64,000 nt of DNA from Vicinamibacterales bacterium (GCA_965197865.1 CBDANZ010000004.1:113577-177576); one strand, 5' to 3'; positions 8,415-57,965 are shown, counted from the first letter of the stretch. Made by a program: numbers and translations. Notes: generated by a model from the sequence alone, not told the origin.

Positions 8415-8620
8415 CTCGATCCTCGTCTCTGATGGTTAGGCTTCGCTGGCCTTTGACCTGCTGTTGTCGATTTCGGAAATGCTCCATGAGCTATCGAACC
8501 CGGGATTTCCATTTTGACGGTCCAAGCCCCAGACCCCATATATACCCACGGCGTTCCCACCTGGCCACCTACGCTCATAGTCCACTGGTCGGAAGTGTCC
8601 TAAACGACCGTTTACGACAC

Positions 8621-16339: not shown

Positions 16340-16479
16340 GTGGTGCGCCTCGCGGCGCACCGCACTAGCCCACGCGCTTGACGTTTGCAAGACAGAGAAT
16401 CCGACACGGGATACGACACACCGCGGGGCTTGTCTGACGGCGCCCTGGCCGTTGTGTCGCAAACGACCGTTTACGACAC
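16340..16479 (+). promoter_or_regulatory. res-like recombination site upstream of the resolvase remnant
   Basis: Imperfect palindrome GTGTCGCAAACGACCGTTTACGACAC (16454..16479), preceded by further half-sites (CCGACACGGGATACGACACACC). The ~150-nt block recurs inverted at 48310..48470; its core recurs at 8595..8620. Confidence 0.55.
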
Positions 16480-16605
16480 ATGCTGATCGGCCACGCTCGC
16501 GTCTCGAAGGCAGACGGCTCCCAGTCACTGGACCTACAGCGCGACGCACTGCAGGCCGCGGGCGTCGACGCCGTCAACGTCTACCACGACTTCGCGTCCG
16601 GCGGC
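16480..16605 (+). pseudogene. serine recombinase, first ~42 codons only
   Basis: MLIGHARVSKADGSQSLDLQRDALQAAGVDAVNVYHDFASGG, after which similarity ends. Confidence 0.75.
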
Positions 16606-32121: not shown

Positions 32122-33209
32122 GGCGTTGGTGCATGAATCGAACCCCACCCAGAACGATCCCGACCCAGGGGACTTTCATCGGCCGATGGCGTACGAGTCT
32201 GGCCTTCCCAGGTCGGTCATCTGATTCAAGATGTGGCACGCGATGAGCACCTCGGCTTGTTGCCCTCCGGGAGCTCGGGCGCGAAGGCGATCCCCGATGA
32301 TCGACTTGTACCGGAAGACGGCGTTCTCCACGCGGGCCTGCCGATAGTACCCAGCCTCCGCCTTCCACCGCCGCCGCCCGATCTGCTTCATCTTCCGGAT
32401 CGTGCGATCCCGAGCGCTCGACCGTGGTCTCCGTCGCGACACCCGTGCCGCCTTGTTCGGAGGGACCACGACGATTGCGTCCCGGGCCGTGGCCGCCGCG
32501 TAGAACGCGATCGTGTCGTAGGCCGCGTCGGCCGTGACGCGTGCGAGGTCGGCGTGGAGCGCCTCGATCAAACCGACACCGGTCGTCGCGTCGTCGACCG
32601 TCGCCTCGGTCAACGTGTGGGCCACGATCACACCCGCCCTGTCGACGCCGAGATGGAGCTTCTTCCAGCCGCGCTGGCCGCGACCGCCGTGCTTGGCCGG
32701 GGCCCACTCACCTTCGCCGGCGATCGAGAGGCCCGTGCTATCGACGAGGAGATGAATCGGCCCCTTGACCGGGACGCGGTGCAGCCCGACGGCCAGGTAC
32801 CGACTCCGGCGAGAAAGCGTGGTGTGGTCGGGCGCCTCGAGATCGACGTCCATCGAGGCGAGGACCGACCGCACAAAGCCCTCCGCTTGGCGCAAGGGCA
32901 GACGGAAGACAAGTCGGAGTGTCAACGTGGTGCTGATCGCGAGATCCGAGAACCGCTGCTGCCCGCCCGGTTGACCAGACGGCGACGGTCGCCACGCGTC
33001 CCGCGCGTCAGCAGACACCCACAGCGTCACGTCGCCTCGCTGGACCAGCCCTCGGTCGTATGCCGGCCAATTCCCGACGTGGTATTTCGTCTTGTACTTC
33101 GGTTGAACCCTCGACTTCATAGCGAGATCGTGCGCCACGGGCCCTCAACACGGCCAGGACCTCGACGCTCGCCCACGGGCGCCAAGCTGAGGAGCCGTGC
33201 ACCAACGCC
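32122..33209 (-). mobile_element. IS5-family IS, intact copy (1088 bp)
   Basis: Ends GGCGTTGGTGCATGAATCGAACC (starting at 32122) and ..GGAGCCGTGCACCAACGCC (ending at 33209). Confidence 0.9.
32176..33138 (-). CDS. IS5-family DDE transposase, 320 aa
   Basis: GTG start. ..HLLVDSTGLSIAGEGEW..KLHLGVD..ADAAYD..RWKAEAGYYRQARVENAVFRYKSIIG.. Confidence 0.9.
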   Translation of the reverse strand: MAHDLAMKSRVQPKYKTKYHVGNWPAYDRGLVQRGDVTLWVSADARDAWRPSPSGQPGGQQRFSDLAISTTLTLRLVFRLPLRQAEGFVRSVLASMDVDLEAPDHTTLSRRSRYLAVGLHRVPVKGPIHLLVDSTGLSIAGEGEWAPAKHGGRGQRGWKKLHLGVDRAGVIVAHTLTEATVDDATTGVGLIEALHADLARVTADAAYDTIAFYAAATARDAIVVVPPNKAARVSRRRPRSSARDRTIRKMKQIGRRRWKAEAGYYRQARVENAVFRYKSIIGDRLRARAPGGQQAEVLIACHILNQMTDLGRPDSYAIGR

Positions 33210-33210
33210 A

Positions 33211-34962
33211 CTCGCCGACGCTGTGGCCAAGTCCCCCGGTGTTGGCGGACCGGAATGGGTCGCTGCAATTCACAAGATCGGGCAGATGCAACGAGAACGC
33301 TACGAGGCCGAGGAGGCAGAAATCGAGCAGCTTCGATCCGAAATCGCATACTGGTTGGAGGGGGAACGGTACGATCCCGCCGCCGGAGCTCCGCTTGAAG
33401 CCTTGCTTACCCGCACGCAGCGCGTCTCGGTTTGGGCGAGCACGCAATTCCACACGATGGAGGGTGAGGCCGAGGCTTCTCTGTTTGCGTCTGCCCATGC
33501 GCAGGCGGAGGCACTCCTGACGGAGCTCGCGGGGCTTCGAAAGGATGGTACCGAGCGCATCGCACGGCTTGCGCTCGAGCGACGGATCGACGAGGTGACG
33601 ACCGACGCACCGGACCCTTCCACGTACGAGGAGGCCGGTCACACAGGGGCGGCGATCTCACCTGCCGCAGTGACAAGTCCTTGGCCGATAGTGGTTTGGT
33701 GGAATCTCGCGCACGCGCCGACCGCCGTCTCGTGTCCTTGGTCGTCGCGCGAACTCGCCGCCCTGCTTGCGTCCGGGGTGCGACTGCCAGAGGTCGAGGA
33801 CACTATTCGCCGACACAGCCGGGAGTGGCTGAGACCGCTGTGCCATGCCACAGAACAGTGTGTCCTGGTCGTGCACGACGACGAACGCGGAGCGCACCCG
33901 TTATGGACGCGGATCGAGAGCCTTTTCGATGGGATCGAGATAGTCCAGATCGAGTCCTCCCTGGTCGGTGGAGATATGACACTCAAGACGCTTGAGGTGC
34001 CGACGCGAGTACTTCCGATTCAGGTCCTGCCCGCGCCACGACGGTGGTGGTCACTGCCGGACGATTGCGTCGTCGCGCCTCGTGAGGTCGAGTCCTACTC
34101 CAGTCTCTCGAAGCTCTGCGACTACCCGCACGAGTGGGTGTTGTAGTACGCCGCGCGGCTCCGAGCCGGGAGCGCCGCCGAGGTAATGGATGGCTCCCGC
34201 CTCTTTGGAACCCTCGGGCACCGACTCTTCGAAGAGTTCTTTCGGACGCGCGACGACTGGCGCCGGATGCAAGACGACAACGTGCTCGCCTGGGTGCGCG
34301 CAGAATTGCCCGGACTCGTCGAACGCGAAGGCGCGGTGCTGCTCGAGCCCGGGCGCGGAGTTGACCGCCAGCGAATCGCCGTCACCCTGGAGCGGGCCCT
34401 GGTCCGGCTTCTGGCACACCTCCGGTCGGCCGGAATCGTGCAAGTAACACCTGAAGCCTCCGGACAAGTGCCGTTCGCGGGACGCCACCTGACCGGTGCC
34501 ATCGACTTGGTGTTGGCTTGCGGCAACGGACACCGCACTGTTCTCGACGTCAAGTGGGCAGGCGAAAGCTACCGTCGGGGCTTGCTCTCCGAAAACCGCA
34601 TCCTACAGCTGGCCACCTACTCCTACCTACAGAAAAATCTGGATGGGAGCGAACGATGGCCTTCTGGGACGTTCTTCATCCTATTCACCGGCAATGTCCT
34701 CGCGAGCGATGGATCAAGTTTCCCGGATGCAATCGTGTCCTCGTCGAAGGACGGCGAAGGCGTAGCGAATCTTTGGGATCGTCTTCGACTCACGTACGAC
34801 TGGCGATGGGCGCAGTTGCAAAGCAGGCGGATCGAGGTCGTGACGGACCTCACGGCACCTAACGAGCAGTCGACTCCCCCAGAGGCGGGGCTCCGTCCGG
34901 TCACCGGTGGCGATCAGTACGACGACTACGTGCGCCTCACGGGGTGGGAGGACTCCCGATGA
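33211..34962 (+). pseudogene. AddB-like RecB-family PD-(D/E)xK nuclease protein; N-terminus lost to IS5, one in-frame TAG
   Basis: One frame from the IS5 boundary to 34962, apart from a TAG at 34144..34146. Nuclease motifs after the stop: GTLGHRLFE, GAIDLVL..LDVKWAG, QLATYSYL. The first ~325 codons of ORF 32233..34146 are antisense of IS5. Confidence 0.75.
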
Positions 34963-37900
34963 GCGGTAGTCAGAGAGATCTCGCGCACGTGCGCTTCATC
35001 AGTGCCGGAGCGGGGAGTGGCAAAACATATCACCTGACTGAGGAACTTGAGCAAGCGCTGTCCGATGGCAGGGCGATGCCCGCGGCCGTGATTGGCACGA
35101 CGTTCACGGTGAAGGCCGCCACAGAGCTTCACGACCGCGTCCGAACTCGACTGATCAGGAGCGGCCGGCCCCTGTTGTCTGAGCAGATGGCACAGGCGGT
35201 CATTGGTACCGTGCACAGCGTCTGTGGGCGCCTGCTCCGGCGGTTCGCGTTCGAGCTCGGGCTCTCGCCCGTGCTCAACGTCGCAAGCGTCGAGGATGGT
35301 GCGCGTCTCTTCAACCAAGCATTGGACGAGGTGCTGAGTGTGGACCGTGTTCGAGAGATGAACCTTCGCGCCGAGCGTCTTGGGCTCGTCGACGACCAGG
35401 ACGGAACAAGCTGGCAGGACCACGTGCGGAAGATCGCGGAGGAGACGCGAAGCAACGACATTGACCCGACCACCCTGCCGACGATGGGCCGCGAAAGCGC
35501 GCGCCGGTTTCTCAGCTATTTTCCGGAAGCAACTCGCAACGACGAGGTGCGGGAGGCGCTACTCGCGGCCGTTCAGGAAGCGATGGCGAACATCGACCTT
35601 GCGTCCGATGCCACCAAAACCACGCGCGATTATGTGAGCCGGCTACACAGCGCCGCGGCTGAACTCCGGCGTGACAACTGCCGTTGGACGCTTTGGATCT
35701 CGCTGAGCAAGTCGTCGCCGGCAAAGAGGAGCGAATTTGCTGCAATGTCGGTACGGGCCGCAGCCGCTTCCTATGACGGTCATTCGGGCTTTCACGCCGA
35801 CATACGCAGGTACATCGAAGGCGTTTTTGCGATCGCTGGGGAGGCTCTTTCCCGTTTCCAGAGCTTGAAGACCGAGCGCGGCCTCGTCGACTACGACGAC
35901 ATGGAACAGCTCGCGCTCCGAGCCCTCGACGAGCCCGCCGTGGCGGAACGTCTCAGCGACGAGGTGGATCTGTTACTCGTCGACGAGTTCCAGGACACGA
36001 ACCCAATGCAGCTCGCGCTCTTTATGAAGATTGCGCGCCTGGCTCACGAGGTGGTCTTCGTCGGAGACGTGAAGCAGGCCATCTTCGGTTTCCGGGGAAG
36101 CGACCCGGAGCTCGTGCGAGGCACGCTCGATGCCCTCGCCGCCTGCGGCAGCAAGCTCGACGTGCTCGATAGCTCCTGGCGAGCGCGGCCGTCGATTGTG
36201 CGCTACCTGAACGCCGTATTTGGTGAAGCCTTCGAACGCGACGGCATGGAACGCGCATCGGTCGAGCTATCACCCGAGCGCCAGGAGACTCACGACTCGC
36301 CAGCGGTAGTGCGTTGGACCCTCCCAAGGACGAGGAAAGTAGCGGAGCAGGCAGACGCTTTGGCACTCGCTATTCTCGAATTCAAGAGATCCGGACAACG
36401 AGTGAACGACCCGGAGACGAGAGACACGCGGGCTGTCACCTTCGGCGATATTGCGGTGCTCGCCACAACCAACGGTCACGTGCAATCCATCGCGAAAGCG
36501 TTGCGCGAACGACGCATACCCATGAAGATGACCCTGGCCGGGCTTCTCGAGACGCCCGAGGTGTGCCTTGCAAGAGCGTGCCTGTGCCGCCTGAACGACC
36601 CCGCCGACACCATCGCCACGGCCGAAATCCGGGTTCTGGGCTCCTGTGAGGAGCCGGAAGTTTGGCTCGCAGACCGGCTTCGCTGGCTCAAGGCTGAAGA
36701 GGAGGACCGGAGCTGGGCCGAGACCGACGATCCGATCGTATCGCGCATCGCACATTTGCGCGATTAGACGATTACCCAGTCCCCGGTCGAGATCGTCGCG
36801 CGAGTGCTCAACTATGTCGGTGTCCGCGCGATCTCGACTGCATGGGGACCTGATGCGATCACCGCCACCCAGCGCCAGCGCAACCTCGATGCCTTCCTCG
36901 ATTTGGCGGTCGAGTACGAGAATCACTGCGCGTCGCAACACGAGGCGGCGACCCTAACCGGCTTTCTGTTCTGGGTAGAGAATCCAACATCTCCGGCACT
37001 CGATCTGCAGCCGGTGGTGACCGGCGGCGACGCCGTCCACGTCCTGACCTATCATCGCGCGAAGGGCCTCGAGTGGCCAGTCGTCGTAGTAACTGACTTT
37101 CACTATACTTGGCGCTCCCAGATCTGGGACGTTCGCGTCGAGTCGACCTTGGACGAGCTCGATCTCGACAATCCCCTTAAGGGGCGGACCATCCGCTTCT
37201 ACCCAAATGTTTTCGGCAGAAACACCAAGAACGTTCCCGTTCTCGATGGCATCATGGAGTCGGAGGAGGGTGTTCGGGCGACTGCTGCAGTCGACGCCGA
37301 GGGACGCCGCTTGGCGTATGTAGGGATGACGCGGGCCCGGGACACGATCATCGTTGCCGTGCCGTCGTCGGCGCCGAGCGGAGATGCCTGGATCAAGAGC
37401 TTTACCTCCGACCACCTTCTTCCTGCTGGCGATGAACACCCGCTTCCAGGTGGCGAGCCCATCCCGTCGGCCGTCGTTGACTTGTCCGCAACCGACGTCA
37501 CGGTTCCCGCACCCACTCCGTTCACGCCAACGTGGTTCCTTGAACGCTCCCCGACCGAGCTTCGACTCCGCGAGCGGCTGAACCCCTCCGACGCCGGGCC
37601 CGCGGAGGGCGCCGCTGTAGGCAGTATCGTCGAGTTAGGGCCACGCCTTGCGGTTCACGGCGATGACATGGGGAGGATCGGCACCGCGCTCCATGCAGTG
37701 ATTGCCGCGGAGTTCGTGAATCCAGGCCGAGACGACGCAGTCGAATACGCAGCGTCCGTCATCCAGAATGCGGTCGGCGAGGAGGCGATGGCCCCGGCGG
37801 ACGCAATCGAATGTGCACGACGCCTCAGGGCGGTCCTTAACGCCCGGTTCGGTCCGCACCGCATCCTGGTTGAGCATCCCGTGAAGCTCGTCCAGAACAA

Positions 37901-38186
37901 TGGTCAGGTGCTCCACGGCTGGATCGACCTGCTCATCGAAACCGAGGCTGGGTGGATCGTCATCGACCACAAGTCCTCCCCGCGTCCGCGCTCAGAGTGG
38001 GCCGACGAGGCACTGGAACATTCGGGTCAACTCGCCGCGTACGCGAGCGCCCTAAGAGGTGCCGGTCTCGGATGCGCGGAATGTTGGGTGCACTTTCCGG
38101 TGAGTGGGGGGCTGGTGCAAGTCGTGCTCAACCGCGAGACTAACAGCGACAGGCCGCGAGCAACGTCCTTGCCGACAGCTCCATAG
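34944..38186 (+). pseudogene. AddA/UvrD-like SF1 helicase fused to a PD-(D/E)xK nuclease; one in-frame TAG
   Basis: Single frame with a TAG at 36765..36767. Motifs: AGAGSGKT, LLVDEFQDTNPMQ, VGDVKQAIFGFRGS, YHRAKGLEWPVVVV, YVGMTRARDTIIV. C-terminal nuclease: GWIDLLIE..VIDHKSS, QLAAYASAL. The start overlaps the upstream gene by 19 nt. Confidence 0.8.
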
Positions 38187-38311
38187 GCGTGCCGCGTCCT
38201 CCACCAGCAGGCTCATCTAGCGCCGCATACGGAAGAAGCGCGTTGGAGTATGACGGTGCCGAACTGGGTCGGCCAACATGGAAACCCAAATCAAGTCGAT
38301 AGAGTTAGACC

Positions 38312-39205
38312 ATGAAGAAATGCCTGTCCTGCGCAGAAAAGATCCAAGATGCGGCAGTTGTCTGCCGCTACTGCGGACGCGATCAACCCGGCACGGCCGG
38401 GGCGCTGCTGCCGAAGCCACCGAGTCCCGGCGTTGCTGCGGTTCTCAGTCTAATCATCCCTGGGGCGGGCTACATGTACGCGGGACGCGTCGGTGCTGGA
38501 CTCGCGCTGCTCGCCTTCACGATCGCCGGCTACGCCCTTTCTATTTTCCCAGGGGCTTTCATACACATCCTAGTGATCTTCGCTTCGATCAGAGCAGCGA
38601 AATCTAAGGGCCGCGTTCCGGTTGAGAGGTCTAATGATCGCGGCGTGGATGACTGGCCCGACCTACTCGATCGAGCCGACGTGCTCATTCTCGACACAGA
38701 GACGACCGGGTTTACGGATCAGTCGGAAGTGATCGATGTGGCGGTGCTCGACACTTGCGGAACGGTAAGCTTCGACCGGCTCAGCATGCCGGAAGGACGA
38801 ATACCAACGCAGGCCACAGCTGTCCATGGCCTCACGCGGGCAGACCTCAGGCGCCAGAAGGCTCCAGCCTGGCCTGAGGTCCACGATGACTTGGTGCGCG
38901 TGCTCACCGCAGCGACGATTGTGATCGCGTATAACGCCGATTTCGACTCGCGTTTGCTCCGACAGACCGCTGAGCGACATGGCCTGACTATGCCTGATCT
39001 ATCCTGGCGCTGCACGATGCTTGATTATGCGGCCCACGTGGGCGAGAAGTGGAAGAGCGGGCCCCACAAAGGGCAGTGTCGATGGCAGACACTTGAAGTC
39101 GCTGCGACGCGAGAGGGCGTGGAGCCTGCTGGCGCGCACCGTGCATTAGCCGATGCGAAGATGACACTTGGGGTTCTGCGAGCGGTGGCCGCGCCACAGC
39201 CTTGA
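38312..39205 (+). CDS. zinc-ribbon, two TM helices and a DEDDh (DnaQ-like) 3'-5' exonuclease, 297 aa
   Basis: CLSCAEKIQDAAVVCRYCG; TM segments VAAVLSLIIPGAGYMYAG and LALLAFTIAGYALSIFPGAFIHILVIF. Exonuclease motifs LILDTETTG, AYNADFD, HRALADA. Confidence 0.8.
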   Translation: MKKCLSCAEKIQDAAVVCRYCGRDQPGTAGALLPKPPSPGVAAVLSLIIPGAGYMYAGRVGAGLALLAFTIAGYALSIFPGAFIHILVIFASIRAAKSKGRVPVERSNDRGVDDWPDLLDRADVLILDTETTGFTDQSEVIDVAVLDTCGTVSFDRLSMPEGRIPTQATAVHGLTRADLRRQKAPAWPEVHDDLVRVLTAATIVIAYNADFDSRLLRQTAERHGLTMPDLSWRCTMLDYAAHVGEKWKSGPHKGQCRWQTLEVAATREGVEPAGAHRALADAKMTLGVLRAVAAPQP

Positions 39206-39671: not shown

Positions 39672-41070
39672 GAGTGAGTGCTAGTCTCAGTTGAAATTCG
39701 GGTGGCGACCCCGTATAGGAATGAGCGTTCCACCAAGAACGGCACATTCCAGGAGGTCACCACCCAGGGCGCGCAAAGTACGACAGATGCGAGGAAAAGG
39801 AAACCACATCGGCCTGGTGCCGGTACCGTCGATGGCGGCCCCGGACCTGGACACGCGCATTGCGTTGATCCAGGCGCTGATTCCGGTGGCGCTCGAGAAG
39901 GTGCACGTCGAGTGGCAGGCCGATGTGGAGCGGCTCGCTGGCGAGCGGTATGTGCGGGAGGGCCGGCGGCTGGGCCACGTGCGCTGGACGGCGCAACGGG
40001 GGTCGATTTACTTGGCCGATCAGAAGATTCCGCTCGCGGTGCCGCGGGTGCGCGATCGCCTGCGGAACCAGGAGGTGCCGCTGCCCACCTACGAGCAGTT
40101 GCAGGCACCGCGCACCCGCGACGCCGGGCTGCTGCACAAGGTCCTCGGCGGCTTGTCCACCCGAGAATACGAGCGGTGCGCGGAGGCGGTCCCGGAGGCC
40201 TTCGGCTTGAGCGCCTCGACGGTGTCGCGTCGCTTCAAGCGGGCCAGTGCGCGAAAGCTGCAGGAACGGCTGGAACGGCGCCTCGACCGCGACGACGTGG
40301 TCGCCCTGCTCCTCGACGGCAAGACGTTCGCGGAGGATGAGAGGGTCGCGGCCGTCGGCATCACGATCACCGGGGAGAAAGTGCTCCTCGGGTTCGTGCA
40401 AACGGCCACCGAGAATCGGAAGGTCTGTGCGGCATTCCTCCGCGAGCTCGTGGACCGCGGGCTGCGCACGGACCTCGGCCTCCTCGTCGTGACCGACGGC
40501 GCCAAAGGGTTGCACGCGGCGGTCCGCGAGGTGTTCGGGACGGCGGCCCGGCTGCAGCGCTGTCAGTGGCATAAGCGCGAGAATGTCCTGGCCTATCTTC
40601 CGGAGCGTCACCGGCCGACCCTGCGCCGGAAGCTGCAGGCGGCGTATGAGCAGCCGACGTACGAGGCCGCCAAGCGCGCGCTGGGAAAGGTCCGCGCCGA
40701 ACGGGTCCTTCTCAATGCCTCCGCAGTGGCAAGCTTGGACGAGGGCCTGGAGGAGACGCTCACCCTTCATCACCTCGGCGTCTTTCGCAAGCTGGGCACG
40801 AGCTTGAAAACGACCAGTGCGCTCGAGTCGATCCACGCCCGTGTCGAGAGCCGTATCGCCAAGGTCGATCACTGGAAGAACAGCGAGCAGAAGCAGCGCT
40901 GGTTGGCCACCGCATTGCTCGATCTCGAGCCGCGGCTGCACCGCATCAAGAACTTCCGAGCGCTGCCCTTGCTGCGTGTCGCATTCACGCGACAGATCGA
41001 AGGAATGAAGAAGTCGGCGGCGTAAACCAGAGGGTCGTCACAGAATGTCAACTACGAATGGCATTGACTT
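39672..41070 (+). mobile_element. IS256-family IS, type 3 (1399 bp) with 8-bp target duplication
   Basis: Ends GAGTGAGTGCTAGTCTCAGTTGAAATTCGGGTGGCGACC.. and ..GGTCGTCACAGAATGTCAACTACGAATGGCATTGACTT. Direct repeat TTTGCCGG at 39664..39671 and 41071..41078. Confidence 0.88.
39691..41025 (+). CDS. IS256-family transposase (type 3)
   Basis: 444-codon ORF (ATG 39787 is the likelier start). LLLDGKTFAEDERVAAVGITITGEKVLLGF, CQWHKRENVLAYLP, TTSALESIHA. Confidence 0.88.
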   Translation: MKFGWRPRIGMSVPPRTAHSRRSPPRARKVRQMRGKGNHIGLVPVPSMAAPDLDTRIALIQALIPVALEKVHVEWQADVERLAGERYVREGRRLGHVRWTAQRGSIYLADQKIPLAVPRVRDRLRNQEVPLPTYEQLQAPRTRDAGLLHKVLGGLSTREYERCAEAVPEAFGLSASTVSRRFKRASARKLQERLERRLDRDDVVALLLDGKTFAEDERVAAVGITITGEKVLLGFVQTATENRKVCAAFLRELVDRGLRTDLGLLVVTDGAKGLHAAVREVFGTAARLQRCQWHKRENVLAYLPERHRPTLRRKLQAAYEQPTYEAAKRALGKVRAERVLLNASAVASLDEGLEETLTLHHLGVFRKLGTSLKTTSALESIHARVESRIAKVDHWKNSEQKQRWLATALLDLEPRLHRIKNFRALPLLRVAFTRQIEGMKKSAA

Positions 41071-42274
41071 TTTGCCGGCGCCTCGGACGCAATGGTCCTG
41101 TCTACCGGAGACCGACAGGTCAATGCCAATGGCGCAGTCGTCAACGAACCGCTTCGCGCCAGTCTTCTTGTTGCGACTTACGAGAAATACCTCGGCCTCT
41201 TCTGCGGCGGTGGCATTCCCAGCGATCTTCGCGATACGTGTATTGTGGCCGACGAGATCAACATTCTTGGTGACCAGTCTCGCGGTGTACATGTTGAAAC
41301 GCTTCTCACCCTGCTTCGCCAAGGTCGACCAGTGCAGTTCATTGGGCTTTCTGCTGTTCTCACTGAACAGGACGGCCACAGTCTTGCCGATTGGTTACAC
41401 GTGAAGCTTGTCCGTGTAACACACCGAGAGAAACACCTTCGCTATGAGTGTCGCACACCGACGACGCGATTCACTTTTCACACTGGAACACCTGGCGAAG
41501 GTATTCGTGATGAACGCGTGGGGCCTGGGATGGCAACGGATCCGCACGCTCTAATCAGTGAATGCATGAGCGGGAACGACGGTAAACCTGTCGTTGTTTT
41601 CTGTATGAGTAAGAGGGAGATGTACAGTGGTTGCCGGACATATTGTCAATCACACGATATTCCCCTGGAGGGTGCGCCGTTGCTTGAAGGACTTAGCATG
41701 GACACACCCGAGGCTGCATTACTGTCAGCCACGATGCCTCACGGGGTCGCCATTCATTGCGCGGACCTGGTGGAAGCCGATCGGTTAAAGGTCGAGGAAG
41801 CACTTAAGGCTCACGAAGTCAACTTAATCTTCGCCACATCAACATTAGCTGCGGGGGTAAATGTCCCACTTGGAACGGCCATTTGTTATTCATGGAAGCG
41901 CTGGAATTGTGATCGCCGGTGCTACGAGCCCATCTCGGCTGGCGAATTTCACAACATGGCTGGGCGTTGTGGCAGGATGGGAACCGAGCATGAACACGGC
42001 CACGTGATCTTTCTCGCAAATGACGGATATAGCGATCAGATCGCGATTCAGACTTTTCTCAATCCGGATCACCTGGACAGCTTAGACAGTCACATCTCGC
42101 CGGATCATTTCACGCCGCTCGTGCTCCAACTGGCAGCGTCCAACGTGGTGAGTACAGAGCATGATGCGCTGACCTTTCTGAAGGCCACGTTCGGCGCTTC
42201 ACGGGAACTGGAGGTCAATGCTGCTGGTCTTGCTCATTGGGATGCGCCGTTTCGGGAAGTCGTAGCTGAACTTC

Positions 42275-42990
42275 GTGGCTGGACGTTTCTCAGATGACCC
42301 CACCGTCGAGCAGGCTCTCCGTTACGCCAATCGGGGTGTCGTTGCTCAGTCTGTCCTCCATCCGCGTAGCGCGATTCAGTTAATCGAATATACCGCACGC
42401 GGCGCGAACGATTTGCTCGCCTTGACCAATTCCGAGACAGACGAGCAAACACTTCGCTACGCCCTTCTGCACGCGGCCTATTCGTCCGACGAGTACAGCA
42501 ACCGCGGCGGCGACAAAGTGCTGCCTTGCCAGCTCGATCCCATTGTCCAGAACGATCTCGCAGTTCAAGCTGAACCCTACCTGATCGAGCATCCATGGGT
42601 GCGCAACCCTAAGTCGGCAAATGCGGCACTGCTGGCCATGCGATGGGCCAAGGGCGAGCCAAGGAATGCACTTTCTCCTGAGTTTCAGACAATCGGTTCT
42701 GGTGTCCTGCAGACCATGTTCCGGGAGGGTAGAGAGATTCTATTTGCCTTGTCTGATTGCCTGATCGCTGGCACGGCTCCGCATCTTACCGATGCAGACC
42801 GTCCAGAAGTGTGCCGTGGCAACGCTGACTGGCTTCGAGATCTGCGCAATTTGGCTTCCGTCATCCGTACACAAGCCATCCCACTTGTCGAAGGTCTCCC
42901 AGGTGAAGTGACGTGGCTTGCCAGGTTGACCGTTGGAGGCACTGGCCTGCGGCTCTTGTCGAGGACCGCCATCATGGCGTTGTTCACTAA
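42275..42990 (+). pseudogene. continuation of the Ski2-like helicase (WH/ratchet-like region) in another frame, 3'-truncated by an IS407-type element
   Basis: GTG 42275 overlaps the helicase stop by 23 nt. ..ALRYANRGVVAQSVLHPRSAIQLIEY.. reads like the post-RecA2 region of Hel308-type helicases. The ORF runs into the IS IR at 42991. Confidence 0.5.
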
Positions 42991-45680: not shown

Positions 45681-46033
45681 GCCCCGGTCTACGGGAATCT
45701 TGATGTCCTCCGTATATCGGCTTCGGGTTCAGCCTCCGTGCGCGGCGGAGTCGACGTGTCGCACGCGCGGGCCGTGACTCGGTGAATCCCTCCAATCTTG
45801 CGTGCCGATGCATGCCAACACGACGTTCGACTGAGCGGTTACCCCAACCGCTACACGGTGATGAAAAGCGCTTTAGGTGAGCAACCATGACCGACGACGA
45901 GGTGGAGCTTTGGCAGCGTTCGTTATTGGTGATGCGATCGTCGATGGTCGCGGATATACAACAATTCGTCAAATGAGCGATTGAGCAATAGATGCGGGGT
46001 TGCGCTTAGCAGTCTGTGTTTAAACCCTGCGAT

Positions 46034-46879
46034 TCACGCGGCGACGGGTAGCAGCTCAAAACAATGACGCGGCGACGACCCCGGCGATCGATCAACGAAT
46101 CTTGGTTCATGGTTCCCCCAGAGAGCGCCGAGGCGCGCCCATACGGCGATGAAGACAGCCAAGACGCCTGCGGCGCGGCCCTGCAAGCGCCGTGGCGTGC
46201 CGATGCCGAGGCACTGGCGCATCGCGAGCCCCAAGTTGAAGCCGCCGCCATGAATCAGTAGACGCTTCAAGATGTTGTCGTGTCCCCGCAAGTGCGTGCG
46301 TCGCATCCCGCCGGTCTCATAGAGGTGGGCAAACGATCGCTCGGCGAGTTCCGCCCGTCGCCGCCGCAAGCGTCGCCCGCGGGCGCCCCGGAGACGGCGG
46401 CGATTCCCATGGACGGGCGCGTACGCATCCGGCGCGTCGGACCAATCGCGCCGGCCACGGTCGGGTTCCGAAATGTACGACCGCAGGCCCACCGCAGCCA
46501 GGTCTACCATCGTCTCGTTGCTGTGATAGCCCTTGTCCGCGACGATGTCCTCCAACCTCCCGCGCGCGTCGGTCGTCGCGTGCGCGGCTTCCACCTGTTC
46601 GGCCGCCGTGATCGCCGCCGTGACAAGCGTCCTCGTGTCGCCCTGATCGGCGCCCTGCACCGTCACCGCGACCAACGCGCCGCTCTCCAGATCGATCGCA
46701 TGCTCGGCTTTGTGCGCCAAGTGCGTCTGGCCGTCTTTCATTTTCGCGACCTTCGCATCAGGATCGCTGGGGCTGGTCCACTCGCTGTTCGAGGTTTTCT
46801 TCTTCCGCGTGCGATCAAACCGCGCCAAGACTTCGCGCGTCGGCGTCTTGATCCCCGAGGCGGCGGCGAGGCGGGTCAG
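46034..46879 (-). pseudogene. IS1182/IS5-type DDE transposase, C-terminal part, cut by IS3 copy B
   Basis: IVADKGYHSNE and AERSFAHLYETGGMRRTHLRGHDNILKRLLIHGGGFNLGL. The N-terminus is missing at the 46880 boundary. Confidence 0.75.
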
Positions 46880-46921
46880 TGAACCGTACCGGGTTTCTCG
46901 GAGACCTCATTACTTGGGAGG

Positions 46922-47251
46922 ATGGGGTCTATGGGACGTCCAAGTCGGTTTTCTCCGGAGGTGCGTGAGCGCGCGGTTCGAATGGTCGAGGAGCATCGCG
47001 CCACCCACGCGTCGGAGTGGGGCGTGTTGCAGTCGGTGGCGCCGAAGCTTGGCTGCACGGCCGAGACGCTACGGAAGTGGGTACGCCAGGCACAGCGTGA
47101 CGCCGGCTATCGCCCAGGGTTGACGACGAGCGAGCGAGAGCGCCTCAAGGAACTGGAGCGCGAGGTTCGCGAGCTGAAGCGGGCGAACGAGATCCTGCGG
47201 AAGGCGTCCGCGTATTTTGCCCAGGCGGAGCTCGACCGCCGCGGGAAGTGA
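46922..47251 (+). CDS. IS3-family transposase OrfA
   Basis: Protein identical to 5695..6024. Confidence 0.9.
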
Positions 47252-48144
47252 TGGTTCGCTTCATTCACGACCATCGGGATCAGTACGGGGTCGAGCCGAT
47301 CTGCACCGTGCTGCCGATCGCCCCCTCGACGTATCACCGCCATCGGGCGGCGCAGGTCGATCCGACGCGTCGCTCGGCCCGGGCACAACGCGATGATGCG
47401 CTGCGCCCGGAGATTCAGCGGGTGTATGACGAGCATCATCAGGTGTACGGGCCGCGCAAGGTCTGGAAACAGCTGCGTCGCGAAGGGTTCTGCGTGGCAC
47501 GAGGCACGGTGGGTCGGCTGATGCGGGCGATGGGCCTGGAAGGCGCGGGGCGTGGGCGCGCGTGGATCACGACCACGCACGCGGGCAATGGCAGCCGGCC
47601 CGCAGATCTCGTCGATCGCCAGTTCGTGGCGACCCGTCCGAATCAGCTCTGGGTCTCAGACTTCACCTACGTGGCGACCTGGGGTGGGTTCACCTACGTG
47701 GCGTTCGTGATCGACGTCTTCGCGCGGCGCATCGTGGGCTGGCGGGTGTCGGCCTCGATGCGCACGGACTTCGTGCTCGACGCCTTGGAGCAGGCCATCT
47801 ATGCGCGCCGCGGCGACGCGCTGACCAGCCTCGTGCATCACAGCGATCGCGGCACGCAGTATCTTTCGATGCGGTACACGGATCGTCTCGCGGCCGCCGG
47901 CATTGCGCCATCGGTCGGGAGCCAAGGCGATGCGTTCGATAACGCCCTCGCCGAGTCGGTGATCGGACTCTACAAGACGGAGGTGATTCGACGACGAGGG
48001 CCGTGGCGCACGCTCGAGGCCGTGGAATTCGCCACGCTGGAGTGGGTGGATTGGTTCAACATGCGGCGGTTGCTGGGACCGATTGGAGACGTGCCGCCGG
48101 CGGAGTTTGAAGCGCAGTACTATGAGCAGGCCAAGGTGGCCTGA
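47248..48144 (+). CDS. IS3-family transposase OrfB
   Basis: Protein identical to 4802..5698. Confidence 0.9.
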
Positions 48145-48309
48145 TTCAATGAATCCAGTCTCCGAGAAACCCGGTACGGTTCAGTCGCCAGACATGGGGA
48201 ACTTGACAGTGCCGCCGAGCGGGGGACGTCCGCACGCCAGGTGCGTCCACGGCGCCGCCGGTCTCGGCTACGGTGCAGGAGGCTAGCGCCTGACCCCAAA
48301 CGGCCGTGG

Positions 48310-48470: not shown

Positions 48471-48638
48471 CGGATGGCCTCGGTGACCGCTTCACTTAAG
48501 CCCACGCCACAGTGGAAGGGTCGGCCTCAGTCTCCGGACGCCGTCGCGACTCTACTGCAGCTTGCCTCGACAGCATCCCGGTTTCTTCGATTTCTGGTGT
48601 CGGGCGCCGCGCCCGTACGACGGCTCCAAAGAAATGAG

Positions 48639-48664
48639 ATCTCCGAGAAACCCTGTACGATTCA
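48639..48664. repeat. solo, degenerate IS3 terminal IR
   Basis: ATCTCCGAGAAACCCTGTACGATTCA versus the IS3 IR GTCTCCGAGAAACCCGGTACGGTTCA (3 mismatches). No adjacent IS body. Confidence 0.6.
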
Positions 48665-48708
48665 CCGTCGACCGGATTATCGCTTCTCGAGGCATAAGGT
48701 CACGGTGG

Positions 48709-49833
48709 CTAGGCGGAGGCCGGTAGCTGGTACGCGTAGTGGAACAGATCGATTGAGGGTACGGCGTTATCCTGCGCGACCTTCCAACGGATTCTTACCT
48801 GTCCCGGAGGGCCGACTGCGACCTGCCTTTTGATCACGTGGTTCCTGATCTGTTTGTCCACAAAGTTTCCCCGACGGGGAAGGGCGGGAGGCTGCTGCGC
48901 GGTGCAGTAGCCGTCTGAGGTTCTTGCTGAGACCCGGGCGCAATCAGTGTCCGTCGGAAGCCATCGCCCCCCATTGAACGGGGACAGCAGCGCGATCGGA
49001 TTCGGTTCCAGCATTCGGCTCCAGACGTCAGCATTATCTGCGTTGACCGAGCCGTGGTGAGGCACTTTGAAGATCTTGCCCTTGGTGGAGTTGGTGTGAT
49101 TTGCAACGACAGCTTTCCACCCAAATGCAGCGTTGGAATGGTTCTCCAAGTCCGCCCCAAGAAGAATGCTCTGGCCGCCCGCTTCGATCCACACAACCAC
49201 CGACGTGTGATTCGGCGACCGGGACGCAATCGCTGCGCCAGGCAGATCTCCAGGTTTCGGAATCAAGTTGGCGATCTCTTCGAGTCCAGCCTGTACGCTG
49301 GGATCTGAAGGACTCAACGCGACGATCTTTACAGGGAATGGACGCTCGGCTGTCCGAAGATCTAGCAGCACTCGGTCCGCGATCGCATACTGAGGCGTGT
49401 AGAGGTTAGGAGCGGCGCCCCCCTCGCGGCGCTTGTTCAATTCTCTGATCACTGCCGCGATTTCTCGCGGGCCTGACAACCCCAACAATGGATCCGAGGC
49501 CAAGCCAACCAGCGTCAAGAACTCCTCATGCCTAAAGGCCGTGGAGCACGCGAATCGTGCAGCGGGCGCCATCGCGAGGAGCTGTGAGAGACCTCTGATG
49601 TGATCGTCATGCCAGTGCGTGGCGAGAACAAGCTGAAGTCGGCTGGGGGTGTCTGGGTCGAGGCCGCTTAGGTAGTCGGCTGCGGCTGCCGTGGTGCTCC
49701 CCCTGGCGAAGCATGAGTCCACGACAGCCCATTCGTTGTTGCCGAGATGCAAGATGACCGACTCGCCACGGCCCGGGCCGATAATCGAAACTTCAAGCTC
49801 GTCAGCATCCGGCGGCCCGTGTATTGGACCCAT
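48709..49833 (-). CDS. metallo-beta-lactamase-fold hydrolase, ComEC-type MBL domain (predicted nuclease/hydrolase), 374 aa
   Basis: HxHxDH motif (ATHWHDDH) and a later KVPHHGS, as in ComEC/Rec2 MBL domains. The ATG overlaps the upstream stop (TAATG). Confidence 0.75.
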   Translation of the reverse strand: MGPIHGPPDADELEVSIIGPGRGESVILHLGNNEWAVVDSCFARGSTTAAAADYLSGLDPDTPSRLQLVLATHWHDDHIRGLSQLLAMAPAARFACSTAFRHEEFLTLVGLASDPLLGLSGPREIAAVIRELNKRREGGAAPNLYTPQYAIADRVLLDLRTAERPFPVKIVALSPSDPSVQAGLEEIANLIPKPGDLPGAAIASRSPNHTSVVVWIEAGGQSILLGADLENHSNAAFGWKAVVANHTNSTKGKIFKVPHHGSVNADNADVWSRMLEPNPIALLSPFNGGRWLPTDTDCARVSARTSDGYCTAQQPPALPRRGNFVDKQIRNHVIKRQVAVGPPGQVRIRWKVAQDNAVPSIDLFHYAYQLPASA

Positions 49834-50495
49834 TACCCTTCTGGATTAACCGTCTCTGACATTCGCTGGGCCCACTGGCGGCTGCGTTGATAGGCCGCGT
49901 TGGTAATTCTTGGTGAGCGTTTAAAGCGCAGCATTGACATATTGTGCTGCTGTCCAGACGGCGTTCTGCTTGTCCCGATGATCCAGTAAAAAGAAACCCC
50001 TGGTTGCATAAGTGGCCTGTCGATGGGGGACACCTCCTCAAGATCTATTTCCAAGTTCTCATCAGGGTTGCTCGGTTCGGTGAGGTCAGTAGCGACCGCA
50101 GTGAACGAGGTTTGGCTGACGGCAAGCACCGTTCCCTCCCACAACTGGGCCGTGTGTAGTGTTGGACTAGGCCCCCCGAATGGAGTTGCCTGTGGCAGGA
50201 CGGCCACACGCTCGACGAGGTCCTTTACTAGGTCGTCTGGCAGCGCTAGGGTGCCGGAAGATGCCTCCTGAGAGGCACCTAAATTGACCTCTTCGCGCAA
50301 CAGGAACGGAACAACAGCGTCTAAATCCTCGCTTTCCGTGGGCAGCGATTCATCAGGCTTCTTTTGAGAGAGCCCAATCGATGAGGAGGTTGGCGTCTCG
50401 TTCGGCTTGTTGTTGGGCATCTTCAAATCGGTCCATGAGTGTTGTGAGTAGTTGGGATAACCCCTCAGCTTCATTAGGGGCGTCGTAGTGTTCAT
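49833..50495 (-). CDS. hypothetical protein (start uncertain: 50495, 50474 or 50420)
   Basis: 220-codon ORF with an S/T/P/E-rich N-half and a structured-looking C-half (..VSFYWIIGTSRTPSGQQHNMSMLRFKR..). Overlaps the upstream gene by at least 68 nt. Confidence 0.5.
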   Translation of the reverse strand: MNTTTPLMKLRGYPNYSQHSWTDLKMPNNKPNETPTSSSIGLSQKKPDESLPTESEDLDAVVPFLLREEVNLGASQEASSGTLALPDDLVKDLVERVAVLPQATPFGGPSPTLHTAQLWEGTVLAVSQTSFTAVATDLTEPSNPDENLEIDLEEVSPIDRPLMQPGVSFYWIIGTSRTPSGQQHNMSMLRFKRSPRITNAAYQRSRQWAQRMSETVNPEG

Positions 50496-51192
50496 TCGTC
50501 TCGAAGTACACGCCGTACGGGCGGACCTTGGCAGACGGCTCGATCTTGAACCTGAATTTCACATCGGGCCGGTCCTTTCGATTGCCGATGATCACCAGTG
50601 ACAGCAGCCCTGGGCGCGTCTTGTCACTAGGTTCTCCTGCCTGCGGTTTCCCGTCCGGGTCGTCGAAAGCAAAGATCTTTTTCCAACCATCTTTCGGCGC
50701 GAGGCGGTCGCCAAGGAGATGCCATTCCTCCTCAGAGGCCAACTGAAAGTGCGTCGAGCGATTGATGCCGACGGCGCGGACGGGGGTGTGCTCCAGGATA
50801 TAGAAGGTGCCGATCACCAAGTCTCGCAGGAGGACCCCAGGTGTGCTTGGCTTTGCGAACGCGGCGAAGCGGTCAGTGGTGATCTGCATCGTGAAGTTCT
50901 CAGTCTCGAACTTAGTAACCTCCTTGTGCATGATCTCTATCTTTGTGTTGTCGGCGTCCGCTTCTTCCGGAGAGATCAGGTTTTGCCTCGCGAACCAGGA
51001 TGGGTGGAAAATCGACGGGTTAAAGGAGCCCAGCAGGACGATTGCGGCTCCAGCCAACTCGGGTTTACGCTGCGGCATCGCCCCAGAGTACATCAAGACT
51101 CTTGAGATTGGGCGGCGGCGCTGTTGGCAGGCCCTTGTCAAGGCCTGAATCTCGTGGGCTTGATTCGGTTCCGTAAACGGGTCACCCGCCAT
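50353..51192 (-). CDS. hypothetical protein (alternative starts at 51093 and 51078)
   Basis: 279-codon ORF: ..AAIVLLGSFNPSIFHPSWFARQNLISPEEA..HTPVRAVGINRSTHF.. No family I can name with confidence. Confidence 0.55.
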   Translation of the reverse strand: MAGDPFTEPNQAHEIQALTRACQQRRRPISRVLMYSGAMPQRKPELAGAAIVLLGSFNPSIFHPSWFARQNLISPEEADADNTKIEIMHKEVTKFETENFTMQITTDRFAAFAKPSTPGVLLRDLVIGTFYILEHTPVRAVGINRSTHFQLASEEEWHLLGDRLAPKDGWKKIFAFDDPDGKPQAGEPSDKTRPGLLSLVIIGNRKDRPDVKFRFKIEPSAKVRPYGVYFETNEHYDAPNEAEGLSQLLTTLMDRFEDAQQQAERDANLLIDWALSKEA

Positions 51193-51365
51193 ACGTGGCC
51201 ACGCCCGTGGCCATCCGAAAAGCCCTGAGCCTCCACAGAATTGTCTATTCTTGGTCCCAGCGGGTGGTCCGATGTTGTACTCCGGCCACTCCGCCTTTTT
51301 GGGTCGCTCAGGGTCATTTTTTCTCCGGGAAGGCGTAACACCTCAGTTGGAAAGATGGCCCATAA

Positions 51366-52158
51366 GGCTCTGTCACACCTGGCAACGCGGGCCGATAAGC
51401 CGTCCATGCAAACCACTCGATCCATCTACCGTGGATTCTGTTTTCCCCCAGAGGTCATCGCCCACGCTGTTTTCCTCTATCACCGATTTCCCCTCAGTCT
51501 GCGAGACGTCGAGGACCTACTTGCGCAGCGTGGGATCGCTGTAAGCTACGAAACAATTCGACGGTGGTGTCGCCGATTCGGGCCGCACCACGCCCGCAAC
51601 GTGAGGCGCCAGCGGCCGACCGCGGGCGACCACTGACTGCTGGACGAGGTCTTCTTGCAGATCCAGGGGCGACGTCAGTATCTGTGGCGCGCCATCGACC
51701 AAGACGGCGACATTCTCGATATCTTGATGCAACGACGGCGCAACGGTCGATCAGCCACACGGTTTGTTCGTAAGCTGCTCAAACAGCAACAACGGTCGCC
51801 GAATCGGTTTGTCACGGACAAGCTGGGCAGCTATCGCGTTGCGCATCGGGCGGAGATAGCAAGCGTCCCCCACGATACGATGCAGCACGCAAACAATCGA
51901 ATCGAAGCATCTCACCGCCGCACCCGAATCCGAGAGCGACAGATGCTGCGATTTCGGTCGGCCGGAAACGCACAACGGTTTCTCAGTGTTCAAACGTCCA
52001 TATTGAACTTGTTCAATTGGGGCCGCCATCAGCTACGCGCCTGGGAGTATCGCTGCTTTCGAGCCCGAGCGTTCGACGCGTGGTCGTTGGCAATTCATGG
52101 ATAAGCAGCAGGACACGTCTAGCAACATGCCGGTGCCTCTTCTAGATGTGACAGAACC
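51366..52158 (+). mobile_element. IS6-family IS, type C, transposase inactivated by an in-frame TGA
   Basis: IR-like ends GGCTCTGTCACACCT and AGATGTGACAGAACC. The frame 51406..52104 carries a TGA at 51634..51636 where the paralogue at 11514 has Trp (GDTWHLDEV versus GDH*LLDEV). Confidence 0.8.
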
Positions 52159-56636: not shown

Positions 56637-57965
56637 GGGGGTGTCAGAAATTTTGTGTGTGAGCTATTGCCGTTAGTTAGTCCCCCAGCCTGAATCGATC
56701 GCCGAACTGAATCGCGAATTGTACCCTGGCCGCCGCCCAGGCGACCGGGGGATTCTTCCACTTCGCCGTGAGATGGCGCAAGGCCAGCCAGATGAGTTTC
56801 GTGGCGGCCTCGTCGCTCGGGAAATGCCCTTTGTTCCGGATGCTCTTGCGCACGCCGCTGTGCAGGCTCTCGATCGCGTTCGTCGTGTACACGATCTTCC
56901 GCACGGCCGCGGGGAAAGCGAAGAACGGAATGATCCGGTCCCAGTGGCGCTGCCAGCTCTGGACCACGGTCGGGAAACGCCGTCCCCACTCGCCGCCTTC
57001 GAATGCGCCCAGCGCCTGTTCGGCCGTCGCGGCATCGTCGGCCTGGTAGACCGGCTTCAGAGCCTGAACCAAGGGCTTGCGGTCCTTCCAGGCCGCCAGG
57101 CGGATCGAATTCCGGATCAGGTGCACGATGCAGGTCTGCACGATCGTGTCCGGGAACACGGCGGTGATCGCGTCGGGAAATCCCTGCAGCCCATCAACGA
57201 TGGCGAGCAGAATATCCTGCACTCCGCGGGCCTTGAGGTCGTTCATCACGCGCAGCCAGAACTTGGCGCCTTCGGTCTGCTCGATCCACAGGCCGAGGAT
57301 GTCCTTGTGCCCGGAACACCGCACGCCGATGGCCAGGTATACGGCCTTGTTGCGTACCAGGCCCTCGTCACGGATCTTGACCCGCAGCGCATCGAAGTAC
57401 ACGATCGCGTAGGTCGACTCCAGCGGCCGCGCCTGCCACGCTCGAACTTCGTCGATGACCGAATCCGTCACCACCGAAACGAGGTTCGGCGAAATCGCGA
57501 TGCCGTAGAGCTCGCCGACATGCGCCTGGATGTCGCGCGTGCTCATCCCCCGGGCATACAACGCGACGATCTTGTCGTCGAACCCCGGAAATCTTCGTTG
57601 ATACTTCCGGATCAGGGCGGGATCGAAGCGGCCGTGTCGGTCTCGGGGAATCGACAGCACCAGCTCGCCGTCGTCGCTGAGTACCGTCTTCCGGCTCGAG
57701 CCGTTTCGATGGTTGCCGCCGTCCTGCTCGGTCTCCCCACCGAGATGCACGTCCATCTCGGCGTTCAGCATCCGTTCGGCCAACGCCCTCTTCAGATCCC
57801 CTACCAGTCCGTCGGAGCGCAACACCGTCGCGGCGTCTTGCCCCTCCAGTAGTTCATCCAGCAGCTCGGCGCTAAACCTGGTCTCTTGCTTCTCCTTCGC
57901 CATACTCGCTCCTTCCCCTTTCGGGAGTCAGCATGGCTCACAAACACAAAATTACTGACAGGCTC
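56637..57965 (-). mobile_element. IS256-family IS, copy 4 (1329 bp), no target duplication
   Basis: Same ends as the other copies. The flanks ACCTCCGG (56629..56636) and AACTAGCC (57966..57973) do not match. Confidence 0.92.
56677..57903 (-). CDS. IS256-family transposase, 408 aa
   Basis: Protein identical to 23415..24641. Confidence 0.95.
   Translation of the reverse strand: MAKEKQETRFSAELLDELLEGQDAATVLRSDGLVGDLKRALAERMLNAEMDVHLGGETEQDGGNHRNGSSRKTVLSDDGELVLSIPRDRHGRFDPALIRKYQRRFPGFDDKIVALYARGMSTRDIQAHVGELYGIAISPNLVSVVTDSVIDEVRAWQARPLESTYAIVYFDALRVKIRDEGLVRNKAVYLAIGVRCSGHKDILGLWIEQTEGAKFWLRVMNDLKARGVQDILLAIVDGLQGFPDAITAVFPDTIVQTCIVHLIRNSIRLAAWKDRKPLVQALKPVYQADDAATAEQALGAFEGGEWGRRFPTVVQSWQRHWDRIIPFFAFPAAVRKIVYTTNAIESLHSGVRKSIRNKGHFPSDEAATKLIWLALRHLTAKWKNPPVAWAAARVQFAIQFGDRFRLGD

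Follow-up and report, generated by a model that had tools for sequence, protein, structure and literature searches.

What does a metallo-beta-lactamase-fold (MBL) hydrolase of the ComEC type do in the company of two conserved proteins that belong to no named family? The question is raised by three adjoining minus-strand genes, called here g1, g2 and g3, in a stretch of DNA from a Vicinamibacterales bacterium (GCA_965197865.1, CBDANZ010000004.1:113577-177576); the whole stretch analysed, 64,000 nucleotides (nt) long, is referred to as the window. A first-pass annotation, made from the sequence alone, had taken the three genes for a coupled operon in an island flanked by mobile elements and for a candidate novel system. 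The evidence reviewed below suggests that they are most likely a nuclease-effector conflict cassette with new partners, a good candidate for experiment and not a demonstrated system. Our preferred reading of its action, which we hold at about even chances, is that a latent DNase is held or steered by two acidic partners, in defence or in conflict involving mobile elements.

How are the genes laid out? A scan for open reading frames (ORFs) finds them on the minus strand at 50353..51192 (279 amino acids, aa), 49833..50495 (220 aa) and 48709..49833 (374 aa), and the three genes that the first-pass annotation saw are thus real. Their starts were refined by comparison with the loci fetched for this study. 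By blastn, 48675..51146 is 96.8% identical to one of these loci, L002, and 48708..51164 is 95.4% identical to another, L001, these being the nearest relatives of the window copy; upstream of 51146 and 51164, blastn shows no DNA common to the window and the two loci. Since this block of shared DNA ends within the N-terminal extension of the 279-aa ORF, and since all 119 g1 homologues are 210-246 aa long, the g1 start assumed earlier (51192) must be given up in favor of 51093 (MYSGAM...) or 51078 (MPQRK..., 241 aa). The start of g2 was set by alignment with homologous ORFs at Met26 of the 220-aa ORF (50420). The cassette then has the following features:

51094..51164, minus strand: 5' leader, which the window, L001 and L002 have in identical form, with unrelated sequence further upstream
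50353..51093, minus strand: g1, an acidic protein of 246 aa, delimited by its ORF and the homology boundary
49833..50420, minus strand: g2, an acidic protein of 195 aa, its start taken from the alignment with relatives
50166..50420, minus strand: N-terminal half of g2 (residues 1-85), variable, rich in P, S, T and A, predicted to be disordered
49836..50165, minus strand: C-terminal domain of g2 (residues 86-195), a conserved small beta-barrel with a C-terminal helix
48709..49833, minus strand: g3, a ComEC-type MBL-fold hydrolase of 374 aa, putative DNase
48712..48978, minus strand: C-terminal extension of g3 (residues 286-374), strongly basic

The junctions are as tight as had been proposed. 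If the conserved Met (50420) is taken as the g2 start, its overlap with g1 comes to 68 nt, which was the minimum claimed, and g2 and g3 share TAATG at the stop of the one and the start of the other, preceded by GAAGGG. The block was also said to be lower in GC than its flanks, and it is (0.55-0.60 over 48750-51250, vs 0.64-0.67 for 46000-48250 and 0.61-0.65 beyond 52250). Within the 5' leader is a near-palindrome, AGGCCTTGACAAGGGCCT (51129..51146), with a TTGACA hexamer inside it. A canonical -10 was not found in the leader, where the promoter scan was negative, and promoter/terminator, Rfam and tRNA scans of the locus gave nothing above background.

Do the three genes belong together? The first-pass proposal hinged on their co-occurrence in other genomes, and in all loci with enough sequence they do occur in the same order and tightly coupled. 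Hidden Markov models of the three proteins were searched against the six-frame ORFs of the loci. The order g1-g2-MBL on one strand was recovered in 86/86 sources, the window included, and the triad is complete in 9/9 further loci, among them four IMG/VR contigs, and in 68/68 metagenome loci whose sequence runs on for 600 nt or more downstream of g1 (17 other metagenome loci, cut by contig ends, are not in this count). Overall, the order was always complete where the sequence sufficed, in about 160 loci from genomes, metagenomes and plasmids spread over at least 10 phyla, and a search begun from MBL homologues rather than from g1 arrives at the same triad. The stop of g2 and the start of the MBL gene overlap or are no more than 10 nt apart in 82/82 loci. 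Pairwise-identity matrices show correlated divergence of the three proteins (r 0.52-0.79; 0/300 permutations reach this), which means that the genes move and diverge as one. The triad is an obligate, horizontally mobile unit, with a co-occurrence far beyond chance.

How widely is the unit spread, and on what? A scan by pattern and tblastn, with one genome for each of 185,579 species, yielded 321 confirmed g1 loci (~0.17% of species genomes). The distribution is sporadic and takes in Acidobacteriota, 'Deltaproteobacteria', Planctomycetota, Verrucomicrobiota, Chloroflexota, Nitrospirota, Gammaproteobacteria and others. The most distant g1 matches, in Paracoccus haeundaensis and Adhaeribacter swui, are also in triads. 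The Paracoccus triad is on a contig of ~6.5 kb with a Rep3 replication gene and a BrnT/CopG toxin-antitoxin (TA) pair, which looks like a small plasmid; the Adhaeribacter triad is on a plasmid, adjoins a recombinase and is annotated in RefSeq as hypothetical, hypothetical and MBL fold metallo-hydrolase. More divergent again is the triad on the conjugative plasmid pAR24_C of Pantoea agglomerans AR24 (L100, NZ_CP134760.1 7612-10263), where it sits between two tyrosine recombinases and all three genes are annotated hypothetical. Its g1 and g2 are longer (256 and 269 aa) and align with the family with hhalign probabilities of 98.2% for g1 and 96.8% for the g2 barrel. With the copy from an Enterobacteriaceae metagenome-assembled genome as query, no DNA match was found in E. 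coli. Neither g1 nor the MBL protein has a tblastn match in 50,697 phage genomes, and the triad is on 4 of 2.9 million IMG/VR contigs, so that carriage by phages is rare.

Mobile elements are common around the triad, as the first-pass annotation had claimed for the window and as is borne out there and at other loci. Within 8 kb of the triad, about 12 of 15 annotated neighbourhoods have a gene for an integrase, a transposase, a resolvase or plasmid replication, and two integrases lie directly upstream of the triad in L181. Some copies adjoin Qat, Cas1, reverse transcriptase (RT)/Mrr or restriction-modification (RM) genes: type IV secretion system genes, a resolvase and a Qat system are found in the context of L001, an RT, Mrr and an integrase in that of L004, and Cas1 in that of L005. 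When 142 flanking ORFs were pooled into a pseudo-alignment, the matches fell into 135 Pfam families, including FeoB, RecJ, helicases, transposases, type I/III RM subunits, RT and Cas1, and no fourth conserved gene was found among them.

This kind of carriage bears on a first alternative, the chief competitor of the preferred reading, in which the triad would be a tripartite toxin-antitoxin or addiction module that stabilises its carrier elements, with the MBL protein as toxin, g2 as labile antitoxin and g1 as chaperone or accessory regulator. The triad is the main cargo of the Paracoccus contig, where it stands beside BrnT/CopG, and its presence on the Adhaeribacter and Pantoea plasmids and next to integrases is shared with type II and tripartite TA modules. 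So is the gene layout: a small, acidic, partly disordered protein just ahead of a potentially toxic enzyme, with TAATG-type coupling, is typical of type II systems, and the acidic partners stand opposite the basic tail of the nuclease. However, genes of this size (195-374 aa), three of them, would make a large TA module, no helix-turn-helix or ribbon-helix-helix domain of an autoregulatory antitoxin was detected in g1 or g2 (Pfam, NCBIfam), and many copies are in chromosomal housekeeping surroundings with no recognisable element. MBL-fold toxins are, to our knowledge, not an established class of TA toxins. Addiction also overlaps mechanistically with abortive-infection defence, and hence with the preferred reading. 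We regard it as unlikely, though worth keeping in view.

What kind of enzyme is g3? Lactamase_B is the sole Pfam domain in its 374 aa (6.7e-8). The two motifs on which the first-pass annotation relied, HWHDDH and KVPHHGS, are at 49600..49617 and 49048..49068, and the motif around D228 is GADLE. In 217 sequences, H73, H75, D77, H78, N208, D228, H259 and H260 are 99-100% conserved; the family has 55 invariant columns and a mean column identity of 59%. The window copy retains these columns, and with them all invariant residues of all three families. When the family profile was compared with the PDB, ComEC MBL domains were the only significant relatives (9ic4, 1.6e-9; 30bt, 4.9e-8). The MBL domain of ComEC is described as a metal-dependent DNase (Silale et al., 2021, as cited in PMC12799240). 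Matches to defence-related MBL proteins in PADLOC are weak and partial (RTasMBL 4.5e-10, LmuA 8e-9, Avs1a 6.7e-5, PDC-M48B 4.5e-4), and matches to beta-CASP (PF10996) and RMMBL (PF07521) are absent. The MBL protein groups with the ComEC nuclease domain and not with metabolic hydrolases, in keeping with the ComEC/Rec2 flavour first ascribed to it.

Likeness to ComEC does not amount to membership. With ComEC/Rec2, its best profile match, g3 shares HxHxDH, N-x-x-S...GAD and KVPHHGS, but it is a stand-alone, soluble protein with no competence or membrane domain, and its genomic partners are different. In the TIGR00361 model of the ComEC C-terminal region only the HHGS region aligns (6.1e-9), and the scores are far under the cut-offs (34.6 bits vs 190.05 for TIGR00361; 29.8 vs 969 for NF008580). 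The scores for defence families are also far short of theirs: 20.3 bits vs 420 for Avs1a (NF041809), and 22.5 bits vs 220 for 6A-MBL (NF058524, 5.4e-5), where only residues 63-94 align. Compared with ComEC 9ic4, g3 has ~50 extra aa between the motifs and a basic C-terminal tail of ~90 aa. This extension is Arg-rich, with a median isoelectric point (pI) of 10.4, as against 6.1 for the core.

The second protein, g2, is of a different make. Its C-terminal domain carries the signature QLWEGTV...NPDE...PGxFYWxIG...RTxxGQ..N.S..FxRxP and is modelled by AlphaFold2 with a predicted local distance difference test score (pLDDT) of 89-98, vs 49-72 for the N-terminal half. Both halves are acidic (median pI 5.3). 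An exhaustive phmmer search at E<=1e-3 gave a family of 2,850 cluster representatives at 50% identity. The family has no match in Pfam, NCBIfam or PADLOC, with DUF4131 also unmatched, and its profile finds nothing among PDB sequences at E<=10. The Foldseek neighbours (LysRS N-domain, RMI, Csl4 and eIF5A) have probabilities of 0.87-0.99 but are weak by E-value (0.01-0.1), with a TMq of ~0.23 over the whole 195-aa model. A word-index search with the 220-aa ORF gave zero matches because the closest relatives lack a gene call for g2 and the N-terminal half is too variable. In public assemblies g2 is uncalled or cut in L001 (8742-9260), L002 (1684-2208), L090 (5465-6000) and L181 (8652-9149), and the family is probably under-annotated in databases. 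A 'hydrophobic-G-A-x-Q' (hGAxQ) motif was also noticed in the arm of g2, 40-65 residues upstream of the barrel, in 41/192 sequences vs ~9 after shuffling. It could be a docking or cleavage site; it is far from universal and is not relied on here.

The barrel and the enzyme together recall ComEC, which joins an N-terminal OB-fold domain and a C-terminal MBL nuclease in one protein. A second alternative is accordingly that the triad is a cellular accessory to DNA processing or uptake, a soluble counterpart of the ComEC OB-fold and nuclease that would serve in repair, recombination or the handling of incoming DNA. It gains from the ComEC nuclease domains being the nearest relatives of g3, from the OB-fold-like matches of the g2 barrel, weak as they are, and from the strong conservation of the MBL protein across phyla. 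It loses from the sporadic distribution in ~0.17% of species genomes and from neighbourhoods that are variable and linked to mobile elements, with no com, pil, rec or repair linkage among the 142 flanking ORFs. The membrane and competence domains are missing, DUF4131 is not matched, g2 is acidic, and the ComEC score is 34.6 against 190 bits. On balance, such a role is improbable.

The first protein, g1, is also acidic (median pI 5.5), and its confidently predicted fold has no convincing counterpart among solved structures. Positions conserved in 212 sequences include an N-terminal GSFNPxIFxPxWF, D91, H102-T-P, G109-x-N111, H115, P186-S187, N200 and H202, which look like a pocket or an active site, as far as conservation can tell. 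The AlphaFold2 model, built from 49 sequences, has a mean pLDDT of 92.6 and consists of two beta-sheet/helix units and a long C-terminal helix. No match to g1 was found in Pfam, NCBIfam or PADLOC, and its profile finds nothing among PDB sequences at E<=10; the sole library match, weak and partial, is to phrog_36401 of PHROGs (6.7e-5). Neither g1 nor g2, then, matches a characterised family in the libraries searched, as the first reading of the locus had supposed. Foldseek against the PDB gives loose neighbours among AdoMetDC/prozyme, rolling-circle Rep and helix-grip proteins, the best being an AdoMetDC prozyme (E 2e-5, TM 0.31, root-mean-square deviation above 18 A). Against BFVD, the best match is A0A515MGR4, an unnamed viral protein of 202 aa (E 1.7e-9, TM 0.55/0.65); TBP, VETF-L, AdoMetDC and DUF4468 follow at TM 0.2-0.36.

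A0A515MGR4 is the only good structural neighbour of g1, which has in addition its weak match to phrog_36401. If phages encode a relative of the putative sensor, it could serve as a decoy or belong to a phage-borne version of the system. A further label was tried and dropped: a g1 homologue, P0109, is called 'TIGR04255' in UniRef, but this was not reproduced. NCBIfam gave no match at E<=0.01 for P0109 and 48 further g1 members, and none at E<=10 for P0109 and divergent g1 members; no mention of the TIGR04255 family was found in the literature.

Is g3 necessarily a nuclease? In a third alternative it would be a small-molecule phosphodiesterase or esterase whose substrate might be, for instance, a signalling nucleotide or a phosphocholine-type ester, with g1 as the ligand-binding partner and possibly a role in counter-defence. 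The MBL fold is chemically versatile, weak matches to the phosphorylcholine esterases Pce/CbpE exist (E 0.006-0.04), and the loose structural neighbours of g1 include ligand-binding helix-grip/Bet v1-like and AdoMetDC folds; the histidine of the third motif, discussed below, is not conserved either. Against this stand the profile matches, of which the best and only significant ones are to ComEC nuclease domains, and the conserved Arg-rich tail (pI ~10.4), which fits binding to a polyanion such as DNA. Moreover, a signal peptide and choline-binding repeats are absent from g3, and linkage to cyclic-nucleotide signalling was not seen among the 142 flanking ORFs. We consider this alternative very improbable.

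How might a latent DNase with two acidic partners work? The effector would be a cytoplasmic ComEC-like MBL-fold DNase with its own basic C-terminal tail for binding DNA, and the overlapping or abutting frames would yield g1 and g2 in fixed proportion with it. g1, globular and with a polar cluster of Asp, His, Asn and Ser, may be the sensor or ligand-binding subunit that takes a cue. g2, with its fast-evolving, acidic, disordered arm and its beta-barrel, may act as adaptor or inhibitor, holding the nuclease in a latent state or directing it. The three proteins would form a complex in which g2, g1 or both mask or steer the nuclease, until a trigger (a phage, a plasmid, or loss of the element) frees it and DNA is degraded, be it the invader's or the cell's. 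The outcome would be protection of the host or of the carrier element, through destruction of the invader or abortive infection. What the data show directly is the gene structure, the obligate co-occurrence and joint inheritance, the mobile-element context, the ComEC-type signature of the MBL protein, the charge pattern and the lack of g1 and g2 in the family libraries searched; DNase activity, complex formation, latency, trigger and a role in defence or conflict are what we infer. A narrower form of the same idea is that the cassette is a three-component system of immunity or inter-element conflict in which g1, with a new fold, senses an invader's cue and releases the ComEC-like DNase via g2, independently of a protease; we think this plausible, if somewhat short of even chances.

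Known systems offer a close parallel. The MBL effectors of the Hachiman (HamM), AVAST (Avs1a), Lamassu and DRT systems are latent Zn-dependent dsDNA nucleases that are switched on by a partner protease (PMC12799240, PMC12642450). Such zymogens carry inhibitory insertions that block the active site until they are cleaved off; in g3, the insertion seen is the one of ~50 aa relative to ComEC 9ic4. Like them, the cassette has a separate ComEC-like MBL gene in a compact arrangement tied to mobile elements or defence islands, and by analogy a latent nuclease freed by its partners is presumed. Unlike them, it lacks a protease of the trypsin, caspase or subtilisin kind as well as any STAND, Hachiman, Lamassu or RT partner, its MBL gene is the last and not the first, and its partners have no detectable defence homology. 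PDC-M48 and 6A-MBL also have an MBL-fold protein in a defence candidate or system, but the matches to them are confined to generic metal-binding motifs and no partners are shared. The cassette thus falls outside all the groups tested: ComEC, the Avs1a/HamM-type modules, 6A-MBL, beta-CASP and TIGR04255. In PADLOC 2.0 and NCBIfam 20 neither g1 nor g2 has a model, and no description of the triad (MBL + OB-fold + TBP-like) was found in the literature.

Several observations weigh against a latent DNase in defence or conflict. The third motif of MBL enzymes usually has a His between HxHxDH and HHGS, where g3 has no conserved one, and because of this its chemistry could differ. That both g1 and g2 are acidic argues against nucleic-acid binding by either, and their fold matches (TBP-like for g1, OB-like for g2) are weak (TM 0.23-0.33 vs PDB). 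Effector swap and domain shuffling, a common hallmark of defence systems, were not seen in the ~160 genome, viral and metagenome loci, and no alternative effector linked to g1/g2 was found in them. Three of the 15 annotated contexts are purely housekeeping; the neighbours in the descriptive tally of flanking ORFs are mostly unrelated, many of them housekeeping and a minority defence. g1 and g2 are also absent from the anti-phage models of PADLOC and NCBIfam. Finally, the ratio of nonsynonymous to synonymous substitution rates (dN/dS) between the window and L001 is high for g1 (0.67) and MBL (0.93), with 0.34 for g2 and a dS of 0.04-0.07, and relaxed constraint in the clade of the window could be the reason, although the counts are small. 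Such ratios are typically inflated at low divergence. The counts from this one pair are too few to tell relaxed from diversifying selection.

What surrounds the cassette in the window? The immediate flanks are as follows:

46879..48183, plus strand: intact IS3-family element with inverted repeats and HTH_Tnp_1 and rve domains, on the 3' side of the cassette; its plasmid matches include annotated IS3 transposases
46922..47251 (OrfA) and 47248..48144 (OrfB), plus strand: ORFs of this element, with the HTH_Tnp_1 and rve domains
48588..48707, no strand: 120-nt insertion relative to L001, directly after the MBL stop; it carries the solo IS3 end, and the match to L001 resumes at 48587
48624..48665, no strand: extra, solo inverted repeat of an IS3 right end; over 42 nt it has 88% complementarity with the left end of the IS3 element at 46879..48183
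51196..51213, no strand: palindrome of the first-pass annotation, with 7-bp arms, not part of the cassette
51241..52104, plus strand: remnant of an IS6-family transposase in two ORFs, on the 5' side of the cassette; 51655..52104 matches PF13610 DDE_Tnp_IS240 (7.5e-27)

Both brackets of the block named earlier are thus in place, the solo IS3 repeat at 48624..48665 and a dead IS6 element, the upstream part of which is a separate ORF. The palindrome TGGCCAC-GGGC-GTGGCCA had been read as a hairpin or operator just upstream of the first ATG. It is indeed present there, but the operator role was rejected: the palindrome lies outside the conserved block, is absent from L001 and L002, and is unused in the minimum-free-energy fold (z = -1.3). 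Its kind is found at chance frequency, with 38 hairpin repeats of 7 bp in the window vs ~31.5 in Markov simulations.

GajB- and HamB-like helicase/nuclease genes lie 3-16 kb from the triad in the window. A co-directional cluster at 32233-39205 resembles a helicase-nuclease defence system. It includes a UvrD helicase that is GajB-like (34944-36767; PADLOC GajB 2.7e-29, RTasHel 1.8e-29), an ORF with UvrD_C and PD-(D/E)XK (36804-38186), a DEDDh exonuclease (38312-39205), and a 637-aa and a 258-aa protein, the latter two with no match in Pfam or PADLOC; the helicase may be split by a frameshift. Next comes a diverged IS256/Mutator transposase (39691-41025), followed by the C-terminal fragment of a HamB-like DEAD-box helicase (41092-42297; PADLOC HamB 4e-23), which suggests a Hachiman-type gene disrupted by an insertion sequence (IS) at 39691-42297. 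The whole window is rich in IS elements: a 408-aa Mutator-family (IS256-type) transposase ORF is present three times (23415-24641, 27462-28688 and 56677-57903; PF00872 9.5e-123 for the first copy), and a DDE_Tnp_1 remnant is found at 46034-46828. Two segments, 8596-9034 and 16353-16601, have 88-90% DNA identity to the resolvase gene that adjoins the triad in L001. The window and L001 seem to share rearranged parts of the same kind of mobile element.

What would the cassette mean for the proteins concerned? ComEC-like MBL nucleases are latent death effectors that several defence systems have acquired repeatedly, with activation always by a fused protease. Here the same class of nuclease is joined to two different, unannotated partners, in at least 10 phyla and on plasmids as well as integrative elements. 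The Pantoea agglomerans plasmid copy is in a culturable enterobacterium, which makes direct testing of the cassette possible. That g2 is skipped by gene callers in several genomes also exposes a gap in annotation. If a role in defence or addiction is true, the cassette would represent a new control logic for the class of ComEC-like MBL effectors, and it would give a function to two large families that are now annotated as hypothetical, of which g2 alone has ~2,850 cluster representatives.

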